A stretch of DNA of 24,272 nt from a virus. How positions within the stretch are numbered: the first letter of the stretch is position 1; each line of letters opens with the position of its first letter. A model generated the notes under the pieces. It saw only the letters and a list, made by a program, of their open reading frames with translations. It did not search any database and had not been told where the DNA came from. Shown piece by piece: positions 968-24,120 of the stretch. The position numbers and the translations under genes were made by a program. The stretch lies in UHGV virus genome UHGV-0102815. One strand, written 5' to 3'.

Positions 968-1569
968 GGATTCACTCTCATTGTGTCAATAACATGGACC
1001 GCCCCGCCTTCATGCGCGGTGCCGCCGGAAATAATTGTTTCGTTGATATACGGATAGATCGTGATTTCTTCGCCAAGATAGCTGGCGGCTCCCACCCAAT
1101 GCGGGCCGCTGGTCTGCAGGTTGATGGACATGCCGCTCATGTGACGGCTACATGGTTTGGCATCGCTTATCAGTCGCTCAAGTTCCAGATAGGTATCTTC
1201 AGTGATGCCCTGGTCCTGCACGCCGATATCCAGACGAAACGTGCCCGGTGCCTCTCCGGTCTGCCACCACTCAATAATGCGGATCAGAAAGCCGAACGGC
1301 TCCACCACCCGCCGCACGGCACTGGTGGTCCCTTTATGCTGATGAATATAAAAAGCATCCTTCACCACCTGGCGCTTGACGCTTTCTGTCCAGCCCTCGT
1401 CCCAGCGATCCACAGAGAACGCCCAGGCGAGATAAGGCAGGAAACTGACCGGACAGGTAGCCGGATTCCACAAGTCACGCAGCGGCACCTGCAAATCAGA
1501 AATCCCGCTACAGGTTTGCGCCAGTCGGCGCTCCAGTGAAGTTGAACCCGGTGGCAGCAGACTATTCAT
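964..1569 (-). CDS. I: Baseplate assembly protein gpI
   Basis: Translation ...LWNPATCPVSFLPYLAWAFSVDRWDEGW...GTFRLDIGV... matches the conserved gpI core; position between J and H. Confidence 0.85.
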   Translation of the reverse strand: MNSLLPPGSTSLERRLAQTCSGISDLQVPLRDLWNPATCPVSFLPYLAWAFSVDRWDEGWTESVKRQVVKDAFYIHQHKGTTSAVRRVVEPFGFLIRIIEWWQTGEAPGTFRLDIGVQDQGITEDTYLELERLISDAKPCSRHMSGMSINLQTSGPHWVGAASYLGEEITIYPYINETIISGGTAHEGGAVHVIDTMRVNP

Positions 1570-12245: not shown

Positions 12246-12271
12246 AACCTATAGATCAGGGTCTATAGGTT
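12246..12271 (-). terminator. Perfect 10-bp inverted repeat hairpin at the 3' end of the cargo operon, possibly bidirectional with Q
   Basis: aacctataga-tcaggg-tctataggtt; on the minus strand it is followed by agcTTTTgcg; the stop codon of the 215-aa cargo gene lies inside the stem. Confidence 0.45.
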
Positions 12272-12896
12272 TATGATGTAATGATACAGGATAATGCACA
12301 ACTTGATAATCCAGCTTACTTACAGTATGAAGGTGCTGACTATAAAAAACCAAGGGGTTTTTTGGGCAATCAATAATATTAACGGATTTACAAGCATGAA
12401 TCCTAGGTGCATTCTTTGATAAGAATGTTTTCCATGAATCCATCATGTCAGAACAGGAAGCGTTTTTCGTATAAATAATTAAACCACCCGAAGAGCTATT
12501 TATAGTCCCAGTACTATACCGCTCGGTAAGTTGTGCATAACCTTTAAAAAGATATAAATATGAAGAATGTTTTTTAGCTTCCCCATGCCAGATATAATCT
12601 GCAAGGGTAATAGATATATCACAATGTCCTCTCTGGTTCTTCTCGTGACTGGCTTCGAGCCCCAGATATCTATTTTCAATATACGAAAGCAAATATAGAG
12701 TTAACTGATCTTCAGAGAGATCAAAGTTAATTTTATTGCCATTTTGCTCTAATTTACTTACAGCGTAATCCAGCTCCTTTCGAACAAGACTGTTGAAATT
12801 AGAATAGGACTCCAACGCAAATTGAATCCTTTGAATGGCAAAGTGAACCTTCTGCAAATGAAAGTTTTTCTCCAAATCATCCAGACTTGTAAGCAT
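12249..12896 (-). CDS. Cargo operon gene 3: hypothetical protein, 215 aa, no confident family assignment (weak PD-(D/E)xK-like motif)
   Basis: Long ORF in AT-rich DNA; start ATG overlaps the upstream gene's stop (TAATG); segment CDISITLADYIWHGEAKK loosely resembles a nuclease D...ExK motif. Confidence 0.7.
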   Translation of the reverse strand: MLTSLDDLEKNFHLQKVHFAIQRIQFALESYSNFNSLVRKELDYAVSKLEQNGNKINFDLSEDQLTLYLLSYIENRYLGLEASHEKNQRGHCDISITLADYIWHGEAKKHSSYLYLFKGYAQLTERYSTGTINSSSGGLIIYTKNASCSDMMDSWKTFLSKNAPRIHACKSVNIIDCPKNPLVFYSQHLHTVSKLDYQVVHYPVSLHHKPIDPDL

Positions 12897-13324
12897 TAGT
12901 ACGCCCCTTCCTTTGTGAAATTAATAACTGTAAAGAAAGGAAATACATATTTTTTGTAGTCTGGCACAATCTCACCAGTATATGGATGCTCTAAACCTTG
13001 ATTATCTTCAGCATCAATCACGTCCGCAATGCTTATATTAACTGGATCGAAACCATCGTCTATAAATTGATAGTTTAATTTCAAAAAATTAACTTTTGGA
13101 TTACACAAAACTTGGATAGCCAAGTAAATATCATGCTCATCCACTTTAGCGCCCCCCTTATTCGAAATCGCTATATCAAATAAAAGGTTATAACTAATGA
13201 ATATATTAGGAGAGCGAGCTGCTAACTTTGCAAGTTTTTCATAAAACATGCACGCCAAAACTCCCACTTCTGGGCGTTCTGAGCATATGTCTTGTATAGT
13301 CTTTGCCAAGTTAGCATCCTTCAT
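12896..13324 (-). CDS. Cargo operon gene 2: hypothetical protein, 142 aa, function unknown
   Basis: ORF with CTGGAG Shine-Dalgarno 6 nt upstream of ATG 13324; AT-rich; no recognisable motif. Confidence 0.7.
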   Translation of the reverse strand: MKDANLAKTIQDICSERPEVGVLACMFYEKLAKLAARSPNIFISYNLLFDIAISNKGGAKVDEHDIYLAIQVLCNPKVNFLKLNYQFIDDGFDPVNISIADVIDAEDNQGLEHPYTGEIVPDYKKYVFPFFTVINFTKEGAY

Positions 13325-13336
13325 TTTTGTCTCCAG

Positions 13337-14443
13337 CTATAGTATCAGCTTCGTAAGCGTTTCGAAATCATCACGAGAGATACATTTACTAAGTATAGCA
13401 AAATTCACTGGTGAACCAGAGCTTCCACCAAGGTACCGTCTTAGCGTTCCTGGTATAGTAAGTTCTACATTGTCCGCTAACTGTAGTAAAGGATTTGTTC
13501 GCTCAACCCTGATGCCTATCCTATAAAGTCCGATATTGCCTACGGCTTTAATACCTTCTTGATTGAAGATATCTTGTCTCAAATCTTTAGTGGAGTCAGT
13601 TTTCCTTTCCTTATGTGTTGTCCCTTCAGGGGTAAGGAATGAAAGCTCAAAAACTTTATAATTAAGAGTTGAGTATGGTTTTTGATCTTGCTTAAAGATT
13701 GGTTCAATCAAGGGAAAGAAATCTCTTTCTTTTGATGCAAACTCAGCACCTATAATATTATAAAGTTCTCTTACTACAGTACTCTTTGCAAACAAGACGC
13801 TCTCACCTATTGTATTAATACCTGCATCTATCAAAATAGAGATAGTAGAGTTGGTCTTATTAAAAATGCACACATCAAAACATTGATGCTTTTCTTTTTT
13901 AGTAGCAATGATCTCTTCGTAGCCACTGTACTGCGGTAAACTTTTAGGCGAAATCCGCTCTCTAATTTTTTGCTCTCTAACGGAACTAAATAGAGCTAAA
14001 GCCTGATTATTGCTCTCAGAATAATGAACTAAGTTTATTTTATTCTTCCCCGACGCATTAATTTCCTGCTCAGAAAGGATTACATCTGAGGCGACAGAAG
14101 GCTGTTCAGATAAATCCCACTTTAATTTCATAGCCTTTGTTAGCGAGGAAATTATTTGGTTGTCTACTGATAAACAAAAAAAAGCTTTATCACCGTAGAC
14201 CAATTGACCAAATATTAAATTATTTACAGACCTTATGATATCATTAAATTTATTTAAATTCTTTTCCTTTAATTCTGTTAATTCTTCCAGTATTTTTCCA
14301 TGAGTAGCATCTCTACCTTTACCACGAGCTAATCCAAGAGCTGAAATAACAGGTTTTGCCACGTTCCATGGAAATCTCGTGATTAGTGTCAAAATGGATT
14401 TCATTTCTGCTTCACTAAGTACTACTGGGACATTTCCTGTCAT
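13337..14443 (-). CDS. Cargo operon gene 1: hypothetical protein, about 368 aa, with a possible trypsin-like serine-protease signature near the C-terminus
   Basis: Start placed at ATG 14443 (MTGNVPVV...); the track's longer ORF begins at GTG 14470 with no RBS; motif LGGSSGSPV resembles the GxSGxPV catalytic-serine signature of S1 peptidases. Confidence 0.7.
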   Translation of the reverse strand: MTGNVPVVLSEAEMKSILTLITRFPWNVAKPVISALGLARGKGRDATHGKILEELTELKEKNLNKFNDIIRSVNNLIFGQLVYGDKAFFCLSVDNQIISSLTKAMKLKWDLSEQPSVASDVILSEQEINASGKNKINLVHYSESNNQALALFSSVREQKIRERISPKSLPQYSGYEEIIATKKEKHQCFDVCIFNKTNSTISILIDAGINTIGESVLFAKSTVVRELYNIIGAEFASKERDFFPLIEPIFKQDQKPYSTLNYKVFELSFLTPEGTTHKERKTDSTKDLRQDIFNQEGIKAVGNIGLYRIGIRVERTNPLLQLADNVELTIPGTLRRYLGGSSGSPVNFAILSKCISRDDFETLTKLIL

Positions 14444-14586
14444 CTTAATTACCTGTTGAAATTGCAACACAAGGTCGTCTTCGGGAGATCAATGGGAGTA
14501 TTCCAATAACTTACCCAGGTATAGGAGTGCTTTCAAGTCTAAGACTATCTTCTGTCTAACAGCGCATGTTTTCATCTAAGCGCGCG

Positions 14587-14809: not shown

Positions 14810-15043
14810 TTAATGCAGCCAGCTGTCGTCTTCCCACACCTTCTGCATAATTTTCATCACTTGTTTTCTTTCTTCGTCCAGTTGCAGTCCGGTTAGTTCC
14901 ACACCGTTAGAGCTACCTTTGCGAATGCGAATTACCGTTTTGGGATACAGGGGGCGCAGATTGCGGTAAAGCTCGGATTCAAGGGCGTCCAGGGTAGACT
15001 GGCTAATCTTCTGCTCTTTATCGATCATTATTTCAATGCGCAT
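14810..15043 (-). CDS. DinI-family protein (Tum-like antirepressor domain), SOS-induced
   Basis: Translation from MRIEIMIDKEQ...ALESELYRNLRPLYP...QKVWEDDSWLH resembles DinI and the C-terminal part of 186 Tum; strong GAGGTGA RBS 5 nt upstream of ATG 15043. Confidence 0.8.
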   Translation of the reverse strand: MRIEIMIDKEQKISQSTLDALESELYRNLRPLYPKTVIRIRKGSSNGVELTGLQLDEERKQVMKIMQKVWEDDSWLH

Positions 15044-15053
15044 AAAAGTCACC

Positions 15054-15242
15054 TCAGCTGATGACATCCATTGAGCGGTTGTATTCGTGGGTTCTGATTT
15101 TTGCCATGAGTTCATCAGTCAATTCAGAAACCCACTGCAGAGCCAGCCCCTTCTCTTCATCACTACACTCACTAGCCGCTACAAGCTTAAGAAAAAAATC
15201 AATGCGCTGGAGCTTCAAAGACTCCAAAAAATAGTCCTGCAT
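15054..15242 (-). CDS. Small protein (62 aa), first gene of the LexA-controlled operon; possible N-terminal Tum-like partner
   Basis: ATG 15242 preceded by GGAGG with a 4-nt spacer; stop lies 10 nt before the DinI-like start; the two products together approximate 186 Tum in length. Confidence 0.55.
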   Translation of the reverse strand: MQDYFLESLKLQRIDFFLKLVAASECSDEEKGLALQWVSELTDELMAKIRTHEYNRSMDVIS

Positions 15243-15285
15243 CTTTCCTCCTATGACACCACACGCAATACTGTATGTATAACCA

Positions 15286-15301
15286 CTGTTTATATTTACA
15301 G
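15286..15301. promoter_or_regulatory. Consensus LexA box (CTGT-N8-ACAG) overlapping the -10 of the SOS operon promoter, with a second degenerate box adjacent at 15271-15286
   Basis: ctgtttatatttacag is a perfect CTGT-N8-ACAG; the minus-strand -10 TATACT (15305..15300) overlaps it; ctgtatgtataaccac lies next to it. Confidence 0.7.
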
Positions 15302-15396
15302 TATATAATAATCTTACTGATGTAAAACGTTTTTTTTACGTTCATCAGCCTGATATGCCTGGTATTATTAAGAGCACGAATTGTTAACCCGCGTAA

Positions 15397-17811
15397 TTAA
15401 TACAGGTTCCGCCACTGATCATCTTCCTGCAAACGCTGGTTCCGATAGAAGATACGCAGGCCTGCTCCTGACGGAATACTGCCTCCGCGAAGGAGTAAAT
15501 CGACCTCTTTCTCGCTGCCATCAAATCCTCTGGACTTCAGCTCATACACGAGCTGCAGTCGCTGATGGTCTGTAATTCGCTGTTTGTAGTCTTTACGCCG
15601 TTTCGGTTTCACCAGGCGTAACCTTGCTGCCAGTTCCCGACGCTCTTTTTTGCTCATACTGTGCAGGTAATCGTGCAACTCCTTGTCATCCATGCTGGTA
15701 ATGTCCGTTCTGGGGTCCCCATCTGCTGATTTATCTTTCTCCTGTTGGTTAAAATTTTCAGCAAGGGGACAGTTATTGCCACGAGTCCAAGGGGCGCAAG
15801 CGCCCTGGTCGGCTACCGCCTCCTGAACGTCAACGGCCTTACGAACCATTTTCCACTTCACTGCATGAGTGCAGATCTTGCCCTCTGAAATGGGTGACCA
15901 GATGCCATAAATACGAATACCGTGATCGCCATAGGCGGTCGGCTCTTCGTTAATTTCATAAGCGGTTCTGATAAGGTGATATTTGCGGGGAACCAGTACG
16001 CCGCCCTGCTTCATGATGTAGGTGGCAAAACAACCAGCATCAGCAGCAGCCAGGATGGCATCAAGACGCGGGTCATCCAGTACCGGCGCACCTGCTTTTT
16101 TGTCACCCGGTTGCCTTGCCGCCTGACCAGCCAGCAAGCGAAGTTCACGGTAAGCCTGACGCCCCGGAATGCCAAAGAAGCGGAATTGCTGAACACGATG
16201 CAGAGACGCCCAGGCATTAACGTATTCAGCGTTATCACGCAGGGATTTACCCGTTTCCTTGCTGATCTCGCCAGCCAGACCACGCCCGTCAATGTTCTTA
16301 CTGATGTATTTCGCGATGTAGCTTGTTGGCGTACCTTTGCGCGGGTTTATCAGCTCAGACTTAAAGCGTGGTCCCGTGTTATTACCCAGCTCCTCGCGGT
16401 CTTCACGAATGGCAAACTTACGCAACAAAGCAGTAATGGTGCGGCGATCTTTTTTGCGCATAAAACACAACAGGTGCCAGTGAACTGTACCGTCATGATG
16501 CGGCTCAGCCACCCGCACGCCATACCAGCGCAATCCGGCTTTGTGCATCGCCTTACGAAATGCAGCAAACATGCCGACCAGATAATCACTGCTTTGTCTT
16601 ACCGTCGTATTTGTCCAGGTCGGGTTGGGCCTGCCGTTATTTAGCGTGGAATGGAAACGTGACGGACAGGTGATGGTGTAGAAAACGGCGCAGTCACCGC
16701 GCATTTCCGCGATAAGCTCCAGACCTTTAACACAGGCCATCATCTCATTGCGGCGATGCGCAGGGTTGCTGCTGCTGGCGTTTACCACATCCTCCATGTC
16801 CAGCGTGTCGCCGTCTTCGTTCACCAGTTCATGAGAACGGAAAAACTCCAGCGACTTACGGCGCTGCTCACGTTTATGCATCACGGCTTCATAGCTGACA
16901 TAGGGAGATGCTTTTTTGCTGACCAGGCAAACAGCACGCAACTGCTCTTCCCGCCATTCGCAACGCATCTTCCATAATTTCCGGTACCACCAGTCGGCGC
17001 ACAACATACGCGCCAGCGAACCCGGAATGAGTTCATAGGGCACGGGTTTACGGCGGTTTCTTTTCCGGCGGAGTTGCTCAAACGCAGGCGGTATGACATC
17101 CAGTCGCAGGGTTTCCGCAGCCACCTTTTCCCATGTCTTGCGGATTTCTTCTGGCTTAACATCATCGGTGGCGTACAAATCACCACAAGCGGCATCAAGA
17201 CACATGCTCATATGCGCAGCGACAAGAGTAGACAGGCGTTTCACCTGATCCTGACTCATTTCAGGCAAGTTCAGCAGGCCGTCCAGCCCTTCATGGCTTG
17301 CCATAAAGCGAAAAGAAGTGGATAGCTGACTCTCGCGTACATGCTCCAGTCGTTCCAGACATGGCTTAATCGTCTCACGCAAATAGCGGGAATAAGCCTT
17401 TGGCCTGCCCAGGCTGCTGAAGTATTCAATACGTTGCATCAGCGGCTTGCTGATATGGGAAGGCTGGGCGTTAACGTCCGCCAGTATGACCATGTCCGGA
17501 TTAAAACGCTGCTGCTCATGCGCCAGCTTTGCCCGGCTAATGAGCTTATCCTGCTCCATTTCGCGTTGGACAGGATCACGGGATTCATTAAAGAAATAAC
17601 GCTCCCAGACCTGATCACTCAGTACCTCGAGGCGCAGTTGTTCCTGCTCGTTATCGGCAGCGTACAGAGTGATCAGGTTTGAAAGCGCAGAAACCGGCGC
17701 AACTTCCGCCGGGTCCAGATAAGGGTTAATAGCCTTTTTCGGGCTGTTCCATGAGAATGCTGCGGCGGCCTCGTTAAAGCCGCTGCAGTTGTTCATATCA
17801 GCATGGCTCAT
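15397..17811 (-). CDS. A: Replication initiation protein gpA (rolling-circle HUH endonuclease)
   Basis: 804-aa ORF containing [12 protein letters not shown] (HUH-type motif); position and size match P2/186 gene A. Confidence 0.92.
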
Positions 17812-20730: not shown

Positions 20731-20819
20731 AAGGCAACATTCCTTCTAGATATGGCTTGTGGCGAGCCGTTGTTTGTCGTGATTAGTAGTGAAGGCTCCA
20801 AAAGAAGACTTCTGGTTCA

Positions 20820-20848
20820 ACTTTAAGATCGCTTTTGGAATCTGTCAA
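20820..20848 (-). promoter_or_regulatory. Candidate lytic promoter pR (-35 TTGACA, 17-bp spacer, -10 TAAAGT) directed toward apl
   Basis: Minus strand reads TTGACA-gattccaaaagcgatct-TAAAGT; flanked by imperfect repeats of TTTTGGA(A/T)T that could be operator sites. Confidence 0.4.
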
Positions 20849-20875
20849 CGAATTTTGGATTTCTTTGGAGGATTT

Positions 20876-21445
20876 GTGGATTTCAATAGCGGCGGTAAGA
20901 AAGCCATAGAACGTTTGGTTGAAGCATACGGGTTCGGTACCCGTCAGGCTCTCTGTGATCATTTAGGTGTTTCTAAGAGCACCATGGCAACGCGTTATAT
21001 GCGTGATATTTTTCCGGCAGATTGGGTAATCCAGTGCGCCCTTGAAACGGGTACCTCGCTTAATTGGCTAACAACAGGGCATGGTTCAAAGCAAGCATCA
21101 GCAAATACAAATACTATAGAAGTAGTAAAATATTTATTGTCTGATGGAGCATTGCAGGAAGACGGTTTTTATATTTTTGATAAGGGATTTCTACCCTCTA
21201 CGTTTAAAAAACCTTTTGTCATCACAGATAACAATTCTGAATTTATTTGTGATAAAGAATTTGATGATATACGTGATGGTAAATGGGTAATAAGTATTGA
21301 TGGCGAAATAACAATCCGCGACATCACTCGTTTACCCGGTGGAAGAATTTTCGTTGAAGGTGGAAACAGAGCCTTCGAGTGCAAGATAGAAGATGTTGAA
21401 ATAATTGGAAAAATTATAAGCTTAACAGTTAAGTATGTTAGATAA
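20876..21445 (+). CDS. cI: CI-like immunity repressor (186 CI type)
   Basis: Start placed at GTG 20876 after GGAGGA; translation ...EAYGFGTRQALCDHLGVSKSTMATRYMR...CALETGTSLNWLTTGHG... and C-terminal ...WVISIDGEITIRDITRLPGGRIFVEGG... resemble 186 CI. Confidence 0.8.
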   Translation: MDFNSGGKKAIERLVEAYGFGTRQALCDHLGVSKSTMATRYMRDIFPADWVIQCALETGTSLNWLTTGHGSKQASANTNTIEVVKYLLSDGALQEDGFYIFDKGFLPSTFKKPFVITDNNSEFICDKEFDDIRDGKWVISIDGEITIRDITRLPGGRIFVEGGNRAFECKIEDVEIIGKIISLTVKYVR

Positions 21446-21656: not shown

Positions 21657-22988
21657 ATGAGCACAGATATAACTTTCGATATACGTGATGAATATAAAAG
21701 AAAAGCCATTGCAGAAAAAATAATAAGTTTGCTAGAGTCTAATATTCCTGTTTCACCTATGGTCATAGATGGGGACTGGGGGACTGGAAAAACAGAGTTT
21801 TCAAAAAAGTTAGCATCCTTAATTGAAATAAACTCGACCAATCATAAAGTAATTTATATAGATGCTTTTACTGAAGATCACAACGATGCTCCCATACTTA
21901 CAATAATGGCCGCAATTGCAGCTCTATATAATAGCGATGAAAAAAAGGAATTAATATCTAAGGCATTGCCAGCCCTCAGATTCGGACTTAAGACTGTACT
22001 CAAAGCTGGTGCTGGTTGGGTATTAAAACAAAATGCGGATGAAATTAATAAGGAATTTGAAGAGGTTATCAAAGACGCTGCAAATTCAGCTATCGATGGA
22101 ACCATCGAGGCTCTGTTAGAAGATCATATCGAGGCACAAAAGAACGTTCTTGCTCTAAAAGAAGTACTAACCAAATTAGCTGGAGAAAGTAAACTAACAA
22201 TAATTATAGATGAGTTAGACAGATGTAAGCCTAGTTTTGCCATTTCTATTATTGAAAATATAAAACATGTTTTTGATATAAAAAACATTAACTTTTTATT
22301 AATTGCAAACACAACTCAACTAAAAGCATCCATAAATCATATCTATGGCTCTTCTGTAGACTCCAACCGTTATCTTGACAAATTTATAAAATTTACATAC
22401 AGCCTTCCTGTTACCTTTAAGGAAGATAATTATAATGATACTTTAACTTCCAAAAATCATTGGATGATGCTATGTGAGCAATCTGAAAGGCTGACCGCTG
22501 CAGTAGAAGCCAGCGAAGATATTTTCTTACAGTTCATTGAAAGTAGAAAATTATCATTACGTGAGGTTGAAACACTTGCTAGATATGTTGAAATATACCA
22601 ACTACTATCAGGCGACAAAATTAGCAACAAATATATTTATGGATATTGTTATTACAGGACTCTAGCGATAATAATCTACACTTTTAACCGAGAGTTAGCT
22701 CTCAACTTTCTTGAAGATAAAGTTGATGCTCAATCAATCATGAAATTGTTTGGTTTATCTAAATTTTCATATCAAACAAGTGAATATAATGTAGATAATT
22801 ATGAATATGCTATATTTGGAATAGTTTACAAATACTTATCTGAAAACTCATCTCTTTTACCTGCTGAGGAAAATATAAAAAGACAATGGGCAGAAATGAG
22901 TGAATACCATTTTTTAAAAGGTGGTGGCGGTATTGGTGAACCAACAAATATTGTGAAAGATGCTTTAAAAGTTTTTTTACTTCAGTGA
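21657..22988 (+). CDS. KAP-family P-loop NTPase
   Basis: Walker A GDWGTGKT and Walker B IIIDELDRC separated by a long insert, typical of KAP NTPases; AT-rich; inserted between cI and int. Confidence 0.8.
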   Translation: MSTDITFDIRDEYKRKAIAEKIISLLESNIPVSPMVIDGDWGTGKTEFSKKLASLIEINSTNHKVIYIDAFTEDHNDAPILTIMAAIAALYNSDEKKELISKALPALRFGLKTVLKAGAGWVLKQNADEINKEFEEVIKDAANSAIDGTIEALLEDHIEAQKNVLALKEVLTKLAGESKLTIIIDELDRCKPSFAISIIENIKHVFDIKNINFLLIANTTQLKASINHIYGSSVDSNRYLDKFIKFTYSLPVTFKEDNYNDTLTSKNHWMMLCEQSERLTAAVEASEDIFLQFIESRKLSLREVETLARYVEIYQLLSGDKISNKYIYGYCYYRTLAIIIYTFNRELALNFLEDKVDAQSIMKLFGLSKFSYQTSEYNVDNYEYAIFGIVYKYLSENSSLLPAEENIKRQWAEMSEYHFLKGGGGIGEPTNIVKDALKVFLLQ

Positions 22989-23067
22989 TATGTATGGCTA
23001 TACAAATTCATACATTGACACTGGTTATACATACAGTAAAAATGCTCTCCACTGGAGGGCATTTTTT

Positions 23068-24120
23068 ATGGCAGTACGAAAACTCACCACAGGAAAATGG
23101 CTTTGCGAATGTTACCCCGCCGGACGTAGTGGACGTCGTGTGCGTAAACAATTCGCCACCAAAGGCGAAGCTCTGGCTTTTGAGCGTCACACGATGGAAG
23201 AAACCGAAGCAAAGCCCTGGCTGGGTGAATCAGTGGATCGTCGAACACTGAAAGACGTGGTTGAACTATGGTTCAAACTACATGGTAAATCTCTGACTGC
23301 TGGGCAGCATGTCTATGACAAATTGCTGCTGATGGCTGACGCTCTGGGCAATCCCCTTGCAACCGATCTCACATCTAAAATGTTTGCCCATTATCGAGAT
23401 AAACGACTGACAGGTGAGATCTACTTCAGCGAGAAATGGAAGAAAGGAGCCAGCCCGGTCACCATTAACCTGGAGCAAAGCTATCTAAGTAGTGTTTTTA
23501 GCGAACTATCCCGTCTGGGCGAATGGTCGTATCCGAACCCACTGGAGAACATGCGAAAATTCACCATCGCAGAAAAAGAGATGGCATGGCTTACCCATGA
23601 GCAGATTGTTGAATTACTGGCTGATTGCAAACGTCAGGACCCAATTCTGGCACTGGTAGTTAAGATATGCTTAAGCACAGGCGCACGCTGGCGAGAAGCC
23701 GTAAATCTTACTCGTTCACAGGTGACCAAATACCGAATTACCTTTGTCAGAACGAAGGGGAAGAAAAACAGAAGCATCCCTATCAGTAAAGAGCTTTACG
23801 AAGAGATCATGGCGCTTGATGGGTTCAATTTCTTCACAGACTGCTATTTTCAATTTTTATCCGTGATGGAAAAAACGTCTATCGTGCTCCCTCGCGGTCA
23901 ACTGACACACGTTCTGCGCCATACGTTTGCGGCGCACTTCATGATGTCGGGTGGAAACATCCTGGCCTTACAAAAAATTCTCGGACACCACGATATAAAA
24001 ATGACTATGCGTTACGCACATCTGGCACCGGATCATCTGGAAACGGCGCTCCGTTTCAATCCTCTGGCAACATTGCCAAGTGGCGACAAAGTGGCGGCAG
24101 CGGTTGGCATTACCCCGTAA
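23068..24120 (+). CDS. int: Tyrosine integrase (P2/186 Int family)
   Basis: Translation from MAVRKLTTGKW...GRSGRRVRKQFATKGEALAFE resembles the P2 Int N-terminus; C-terminus has ARW, HVLRHTFAAHFM and MRYAHL (R-H-R-Y catalytic residues); start at ATG 23068 after GGAGGG. Confidence 0.93.
   Translation: MAVRKLTTGKWLCECYPAGRSGRRVRKQFATKGEALAFERHTMEETEAKPWLGESVDRRTLKDVVELWFKLHGKSLTAGQHVYDKLLLMADALGNPLATDLTSKMFAHYRDKRLTGEIYFSEKWKKGASPVTINLEQSYLSSVFSELSRLGEWSYPNPLENMRKFTIAEKEMAWLTHEQIVELLADCKRQDPILALVVKICLSTGARWREAVNLTRSQVTKYRITFVRTKGKKNRSIPISKELYEEIMALDGFNFFTDCYFQFLSVMEKTSIVLPRGQLTHVLRHTFAAHFMMSGGNILALQKILGHHDIKMTMRYAHLAPDHLETALRFNPLATLPSGDKVAAAVGITP

Follow-up and report, generated by a model that had tools for sequence, protein, structure and literature searches.

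Tum of phage 186 is a LexA-controlled anti-CI factor (PMC7708051). It is expressed from a LexA-repressed promoter that follows gene A and has its -10 hexamer, TACTGT, inside the LexA box. A single 146-aa ORF encodes Tum, with an antirepressor N-terminal half and a DinI-like C-terminal half, and orf97 is the next gene of the operon. The 186 record also annotates nested internal starts, including one for a 76-aa DinI-like product, a truncated Tum that begins at an internal GTG and is said to modulate SOS induction. Binding to CI that blocks its binding to operators has been reported only for 186 Tum (PMC3121763, PMC7708051).

The split form of this module, in which tumA and tumB are separate genes of one SOS operon, is already described in 186-like phages and has been genetically tested in prophages nearly identical to the one studied here. 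In PSP3, a 60-aa TumA is followed by a 77-aa DinI-like TumB, both located after gene A and preceded by a LexA box. The PSP3 GenBank record describes tumA as "similar to 5' end 186 tum; UV induction of prophage" and tumB as "similar to dinI and 3' end of 186 tum". A passage of Lemire et al. 2011 states that the tum genes of Fels-2 and PSP3 are split in two by a stop codon, with Bunny et al. 2002 and a personal communication from G. E. Christie as its sources, and that the upstream gene of PSP3 carries antirepressor activity (PMC3121763). In Fels-2, the two genes are STM2728 and STM2726.1 (originally STM2727). STM2727 was up-regulated 5.5- to 14.8-fold upon treatment with the mutagen MX, and STM2726-2727-2728 were described as an operon (PMC2225428). 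In the P2-like prophage DuoHS of E. coli HS, either deletion of tum or a lexA(Ind-) allele abolishes lysis triggered by mitomycin C (PMC12055606). [quoted passage not shown] The order of the genes is reversed in these operons, with dinI first, and the Gifsy elements are lambdoid prophages with unrelated repressors.

The locus described here lies in a 24,272-nt stretch of DNA (UHGV virus genome UHGV-0102815), referred to as the window, which carries a prophage of the 186/Fels-2 type (Peduoviridae). Its features are as follows.

17811..15397, minus strand: replication gene A, with a short intergenic region and two small genes after it
15326..15321, minus strand: -35 hexamer TTTACA, read from the sequence and placed like the annotated -35 of phage 186 p95
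15303..15298, minus strand: -10 hexamer TACTGT, with a 17-nt spacer, overlapping LexA box 1
15286..15301: LexA box 1, a perfect box, CTGTTTATATTTACAG (CTGTAAATATAAACAG on the minus strand), assigned by pattern search, conservation and alignment with box 1 of colicin operators
15286..15271, minus strand: LexA box 2, GTGGTTATACATACAG, which has one base pair in common with box 1
15247..15252, minus strand: Shine-Dalgarno sequence AGGAGG of tumA, read from the sequence and invariant in eight relatives
15242..15054, minus strand, stop codon included: tumA, putative 62-aa antirepressor homologue, assigned by homology, selection and the match to DuoHS primers
15050..15055, minus strand: Shine-Dalgarno sequence GAGGTG of tumB, read from the sequence and overlapping the tumA stop codon
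15043..14810, minus strand, stop codon included: tumB, 77-aa DinI-family protein, assigned by Pfam PF06183
14677..14650, minus strand: intrinsic terminator closing the two-gene operon, AAGGCCCGCCAG-AACU-GGCGGGCUUUUG (dG -27.9 kcal/mol, z -5.6)
20789..21445, plus strand, start codon uncertain: 186-type CI immunity repressor, presumed target of TumA, assigned by Pfam

The two small genes lie downstream of gene A and are read in the same direction. A strong terminator stands approximately 135 nt beyond the 77-residue ORF, and the unit is therefore a two-gene operon. What lies beyond it differs between relatives, as the operon is followed by STM2726 in Fels-2 and by the terminator and then unrelated cargo genes in the window. 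An Rfam search of the window returned no match. A hairpin located after gene A and ahead of the promoter (15349..15316) was weak (z -2.1) and is not kept in relatives.

Fels-2 carries essentially the same module as the window, downstream of gene A and with the same promoter and double operator. The tumA product is 98.4% identical to STM2728, and the TumB protein is 100% identical to the Fels-2 copy, which is annotated as similar to PSP3 TumB. Between the CI repressors of the two prophages, identity is 71% over the N-terminal domain and 25% over the C-terminal domain. The primers used to delete tum in DuoHS, which join ATAGGAGGAAAG-ATG to TGA-GGTGACTTTTATGCGCATTG (PMC11195241), provide a link to the published genetics. 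Their two halves align without mismatch to 15240..15262 and 15034..15056 of the window, and the junctions fall exactly on the ATG and the TGA of the 62-aa ORF, which makes this ORF the counterpart of the gene that was deleted in DuoHS. The proposed experiments with lexA(Ind-) and with gene deletion have accordingly in effect already been carried out in DuoHS, where induction was lost in either mutant (PMC12055606).

The initial annotation had placed a perfect LexA box over the -10 hexamer of the promoter that drives the 62-aa gene, with a second, degenerate box abutting it, and both elements were confirmed. Box 1 (15286..15301) is the sole perfect CTGT-N8-ACAG in the window. Approximately 0.31 such boxes are expected in the window by chance, and 27 of 100 shuffled sequences had at least one, so a single perfect box is weak evidence by itself. 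For the extended consensus TACTGT-W8-ACAGT, the window has a single occurrence (15285..15303, minus strand), and 100 shuffles had none. Box 2 shares one base with box 1. The -35 hexamer at 15326..15321 falls outside the span initially given for the module, 15243-15310. An alternative -10, TATACT, is found at 15300..15305 with a 15-nt spacer; TACTGT is the -10 given in the annotation of p95, the LexA-controlled promoter of 186. A simple sigma-70 consensus scan found no promoter at this site, because TACTGT matches TATAAT at only three of six positions. Conservation was assessed by aligning the region with that of Fels-2, SopEPhi, SEN8, Yersinia MLG42, three Klebsiella phages and E. coli phage 500465-1. 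Across these eight diverged phages, the sequence on either side differs or has insertions, but neither promoter hexamer changes and the half-sites of the two boxes are likewise invariant: CTGT and CAG of box 1 are kept, and TGG and ATACAG of box 2 are invariant. A conserved LexA-like box is also present in a putative promoter upstream of int, within an element at 23015..23067.

Two 16-bp boxes that overlap by one bp at a promoter form an arrangement of the kind known as the colicin-type double SOS operator. Phages 186, PSP3 and ESSI-2 have a single LexA box, in contrast to the two found here. When a 51-nt operator sequence was used as the query, approximately 790 small Col-type plasmids were matched, with 83-86% identity over 42-46 nt. 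In the three plasmids that were inspected, the match lies approximately 40 nt upstream of a gene for a colicin-like pore-former or a tRNase bacteriocin. The two boxes of the Col plasmids share one bp, as they do in the phage (phage, CTGTAAATATAAACAGTGGTTATACATACAG; plasmid, CTGTATATAAAACCAGTGGTTATATGTACAG), and in the phage as in the colicin and bacteriocin operators the left half of box 2 deviates to GTGG. The columns align one by one. Box 2 of Fels-2 is identical to box 2 of a Klebsiella bacteriocin plasmid. There are also differences, since the plasmid operators drive a toxin gene and the phage operator drives an antirepressor homologue, and since the colicin -10 lies upstream of box 1 whereas that of the phage overlaps it. 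Common descent and convergence on the requirements of LexA would both fit this likeness, and they cannot be told apart by it. A colicin double operator is reportedly bound by two LexA dimers, with very tight repression as the outcome (PMC2994835), and by analogy the phage operator would be occupied by two LexA dimers.

The 77-aa product of the second gene is readily assigned. It matches Pfam PF06183 with an E value of 6.5e-23 and 81.3 bits (cut-off 24.2), over profile positions 1-63 of 63, and it aligns with residues 1-77 of the 81 residues of E. coli DinI (PDB 1ghh; E 2.7e-6), including the acidic C-terminal W-E-D...W motif. It is 41% identical to residues 71-145 of 186 Tum (E 3e-24), and it begins exactly at the internal GTG that is annotated in 186 as the start of the truncated protein. 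NCBIfam NF007893, the equivalog of the host chromosomal DinI, scored 42.7 bits with this protein, below its cut-off of 111. By sequence, TumB is a phage paralogue of the TumB type rather than a host dinI product. Deletion of dinI in the Gifsy prophages had no significant effect on induction (PMC3121763), and by analogy the DinI-like cistron may contribute little to induction here. A hairpin at 15065..15048, spanning the tumA stop codon and the tumB Shine-Dalgarno sequence, was considered as a translational-coupling element and rejected (z -1.1; not conserved).

The relationship of the 62-aa protein to Tum is more remote. Pairwise BLASTP gave no alignment of this protein with either 186 Tum or PSP3 TumA, nor of PSP3 TumA with 186 Tum, and profile methods were therefore needed. 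A broad TumA profile was built from an exhaustive profile search of 1.84 billion representatives, which gave 85 family members. When compared by hhalign with the family of the 186 Tum N-terminal half, this profile was matched with a probability of 96.7% and an E value of 3.9e-10, residues 4-46 aligning with residues 4-46. It also matched a 60-aa Yersinia phage protein annotated as "tum protein" (E 2.4e-10). A narrow profile of close relatives matched the 186 Tum N-domain family in register (P 7e-4), and the profile match of the window TumA with PSP3 TumA alone was weak (P 0.004). In PHROGs, the window TumA belongs to phrog_698 ("unknown function") and PSP3 TumA to phrog_1993. Residues 7-44 of 186 Tum match phrog_698 at 2.4e-5, 186 Tum also matches phrog_1993 at 1e-22, and phrog_8554 is matched by both 186 Tum (1.4e-11) and the window TumA. 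No family for the 62-aa protein was found in Pfam or NCBIfam. AlphaFold predicts a two-helix hairpin for TumA, with helices at residues 2-23 and 28-61 (pLDDT 88.8). A model of the 186-type family, which is of low confidence (pLDDT 67.5), has the same topology, and the turn lies near a conserved Cys in both. A sequence profile search of the PDB and a Foldseek search with the TumA model returned only generic helical hairpins, with E values above 0.7. These profile comparisons show remote homology between the 62-aa protein and the 186 Tum N-terminal half. The 62-aa protein shares with the Tum/TumA proteins its homology to the non-DinI half, its site after gene A and a LexA box over the -10. In the alignments with 186 Tum and E. 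coli DinI that had been suggested for this locus, TumB thus matches both proteins and TumA matches Tum only by profile.

The presumed target of TumA is also encoded in the window. The CI protein has an HTH domain (PF07022, 3.3e-31) and a 186 CI C-terminal domain (PF16452, 1.6e-28); no ATG is present upstream of the HTH domain. The Pfam search reported no S24 self-cleavage domain in this CI, which fits induction by an antirepressor rather than by cleavage of the repressor. Phages with a 100%-identical TumA have a CI that is only 42-56% identical to that of the window, and a strictly cognate pairing of TumA with CI would not predict this. The conservation of the N-terminal domain reconciles the two in part: among phages with an identical or near-identical TumA, the HTH domain of CI is 71-83% identical to that of the window, and the C-terminal domain only 25-42% identical. 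The N-terminal domain of 186 CI is 38% identical to that of the window. Across ten phylogenetically non-independent points, the Spearman correlation of TumA identity was 0.91 with identity of the CI N-terminal domain and 0.55 with that of the C-terminal domain, which is suggestive of TumA tracking the DNA-binding domain of CI rather than the C-terminal domain. From this tracking, we infer that TumA probably contacts the N-terminal HTH domain, which fits the known effect of Tum on DNA binding. Such a contact, if true, would let one TumA serve several immunity types.

Taken together, the locus is very probably the SOS induction operon of a 186/Fels-2-type prophage, comprising a LexA-gated promoter, a TumA antirepressor of CI and a DinI-like TumB. 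In a healthy lysogen, two LexA dimers would sit on the double operator and cover the -10 and the transcription start. Upon DNA damage, active RecA would promote self-cleavage of LexA and the promoter would fire. TumA would then bind the 186-type CI, probably at the N-terminal HTH domain, and stop it from binding DNA, such that the early lytic promoter is released. TumB would presumably modulate RecA filaments or the timing of induction, and the operon transcript would end at the strong terminator. Of this scheme, the layout of the locus, the homologies, the conservation and the selection acting on the two genes come from the present analysis, and inducibility by DNA damage and the need for tumA and for a cleavable LexA come from published work on nearly identical prophages. 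Occupancy of the operator by two LexA dimers, direct contact between TumA and CI and the site of that contact, and the role assigned to the DinI-like protein are predicted steps.

Three other explanations were weighed against this reading. The initial annotation had proposed that the coding capacity equivalent to Tum is split over two cistrons, each with its own RBS, and had named a frameshift error hiding a single Tum-length ORF as what would overturn the proposal. Because 186 has a single 146-aa ORF spanning both halves, and the two ORFs of the window are only 10 nt apart (tumA stop to tumB ATG) and in different frames, the split might be a frameshift artefact or a pseudogene of a fused tum. 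This is exceedingly improbable, as the same split is found with intact 62- and 77-aa ORFs in Fels-2, SopEPhi, SEN8, Yersinia MLG42 and several Klebsiella phages; phage 500465-1 is the sole diverged relative with an interrupted DinI-like gene. The spacers of the relatives are 10-12 nt long and occur in all three relative frames. At dS of approximately 1, tumA has a dN/dS of 0.06-0.08 and the DinI-like gene one of 0.03-0.10, so purifying selection on each of them is strong. Translation of tumB can start from a separate Shine-Dalgarno sequence (GAGGTG, with AGGAGG serving tumA) and a separate ATG, and at least 80% of the region is carried by 1076 E. coli genomes. No TumA-DinI fusion was found among the 85 representatives of the Fels-2-type family, and even among the close relatives of the 186 Tum N-terminal half, most are stand-alone proteins 63-72 aa in length, so the split is the common state and the 186 fusion the exception. 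The split is also ancient. The proposal of two cistrons is thus supported both by the 41% identity of TumB to Tum and by the profile match of TumA. It is also very improbable, if slightly less so, that the LexA box is a chance match and that expression of the two genes depends on read-through of the early lytic operon instead of SOS control. A perfect box is not rare in a sequence of this length, as the shuffles indicate, and no strong terminator stands between gene A and the promoter, such that lytic read-through is plausible as an additional route of expression. Against a chance box are the absence of the extended consensus from all of the shuffles, the invariance of boxes and hexamers where the flanks differ, and an architecture shared with the LexA-regulated p95 of 186 and with colicin operators. 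The Fels-2 copy, moreover, is induced by DNA damage (PMC2225428), and lexA(Ind-) blocks the induction of DuoHS (PMC12055606).

The remaining alternative accepts SOS control of the operon but not a direct action of the 62-aa protein on CI; the protein would either trigger induction through a different target, such as Apl/Cox, CII or a host factor, or have some other SOS-linked function. We consider it unlikely, and yet the most credible of the three. The pairing of an identical TumA with divergent CI proteins speaks for it, as does the lack of a significant fold match or a solved structure for TumA. Direct binding to CI has been shown only for the remotely related 186 Tum, and the DuoHS study says only that tum "inhibits pro-lysogenic regulators" (PMC12055606). 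The evidence that favours CI as the target is the homology of the 62-aa protein to the non-DinI half of 186 Tum, the antirepressor activity that the passage cited above reports for the upstream gene of PSP3 (PMC3121763), and the presence of a 186-type CI in the window. TumA identity also follows the CI N-terminal domain (rho 0.91 vs 0.55, n=10, non-independent), and deletion of tum blocks the induction of DuoHS (PMC12055606).

With TumA read as an antirepressor of CI, a wider hypothesis is possible but doubtful. It holds that TumA has a broad range through the conserved HTH domain of CI, that the colicin-type operator sets a higher damage threshold than the single boxes of 186, PSP3 and ESSI-2, and that the int promoter is LexA-gated. 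One near-invariant 62-aa protein would then induce prophages with very different CI C-terminal domains, and presumably different immunities, and cross-induction among co-resident P2-like prophages would follow if this were true. The double operator would have arisen by exchange with Col plasmids or by convergence. The int promoter of this lineage would start inside an upstream terminator hairpin, and excision would be wired to the same signal as induction. The double operator, the tracking of the CI N-terminal domain by TumA and the box upstream of int may bear on induction thresholds and on cross-talk between prophages.

The feature itself is an ordinary prophage induction module, and the main value of the analysis is in annotation. 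Nearly all records call the product of the 62-aa gene a "hypothetical protein", and labelling the gene as an SOS antirepressor would predict which P2-like prophages are induced by DNA damage. The module was found in 1125 of 5426 complete E. coli genomes (about a fifth) and in 67 phage records. It also occurs in many prophages of Klebsiella and Salmonella.

In the 80-nt gap that separates a KAP-family NTPase gene from ATG 23068, the likely start codon of int, lies a LexA-like box embedded in a promoter (region 23015..23070, + strand); a hairpin follows directly. The features of this stretch are as follows.

21657..22988, + strand: gene for a KAP-family P-loop NTPase of 443 aa (PF07693, E 4.7e-53)
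23015..23020 and 23038..23043, + strand: near-consensus promoter, TTGACA and AAAAAT separated by 17 nt
23021..23036, + strand: LexA-like box CTGGTTATACATACAG, one mismatch to CTGT-N8-ACAG
23044..23067, + strand: hairpin with a T-run, 3' of the promoter's AAAAAT

The LexA-like box takes up the promoter spacer and shares 15 of its 16 bases with box 2 of the double LexA operator that precedes tumA, the gene for the 62-aa antirepressor homologue. Transcription from this promoter is predicted to start within the 5' arm of the hairpin. Box, promoter and hairpin are all conserved in phages 813R9, KP12 and 4LV2017, and the hairpin stem displays compensatory changes among these phages. The element may serve as an int promoter gated by SOS, one that would bypass a terminator lying upstream.

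The KAP NTPase gene lies between cI, the immunity repressor gene, and int, whereas cI and int are adjacent in 186 and Fels-2. A 'chromosome segregation ATPase' is annotated at the corresponding position in 813R9 and KP12. Cargo or defence is the likely role of the KAP NTPase gene.

In Cronobacter phage ESSI-2 (1150..1400 of its record, L005) and in ESSI2_ev015 (L011), a TumA homologue (41-49% identical) is encoded behind one perfect LexA box. The genes that come next lie on the other strand, so neither phage has a DinI-like gene after it; the antirepressor half can thus occur without the DinI half. In Escherichia phage 500465-1, the DinI-like gene is interrupted (L013, about 1190..1230), with the conserved ATG (MRIE...) retained and a stop encountered after 4 codons. 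Constraint on tumA of this phage is relaxed (dN/dS of 0.66 vs the window). Either the module is decaying in this phage or the L013 record contains a sequencing error.

The TumA family profile also matched 10 separate stretches of a 1205-aa protein, P0289 (E 1.5e-8), the best of which spans residues 986-1023. From these matches, P0289 looks like a large protein built with repeated TumA-like helical units.

Downstream of the terminator that closes the tumA/tumB operon, three genes of unknown function occupy 12249..14470 (- strand), between tumB and the portal gene, a site at which P2-like phages carry variable cargo.

first gene, - strand: 377 aa, phrog_12777
second gene, - strand: 142 aa, phrog_11490
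third gene, - strand: 215 aa, phrog_9664

A Pfam search returned no match for any of the three; in phage 813R9, the counterpart of the 377-aa gene carries the annotation Hypoth_Ymh domain protein.

The CI open reading frame of the window (20789..21445, + strand) has no ATG upstream of its HTH domain. GTG 20789, its sole listed start, adds approximately 20 residues that are absent from homologues, and its assignment as the true start codon is uncertain. The N-terminal HTH domain occurs as two tandem copies in the CI proteins of two Klebsiella phages:

L017, 22..864: CI of Kp4871-2, 280 aa
L018, 100..873: CI of ST11-OXA245phi3.1, 257 aa
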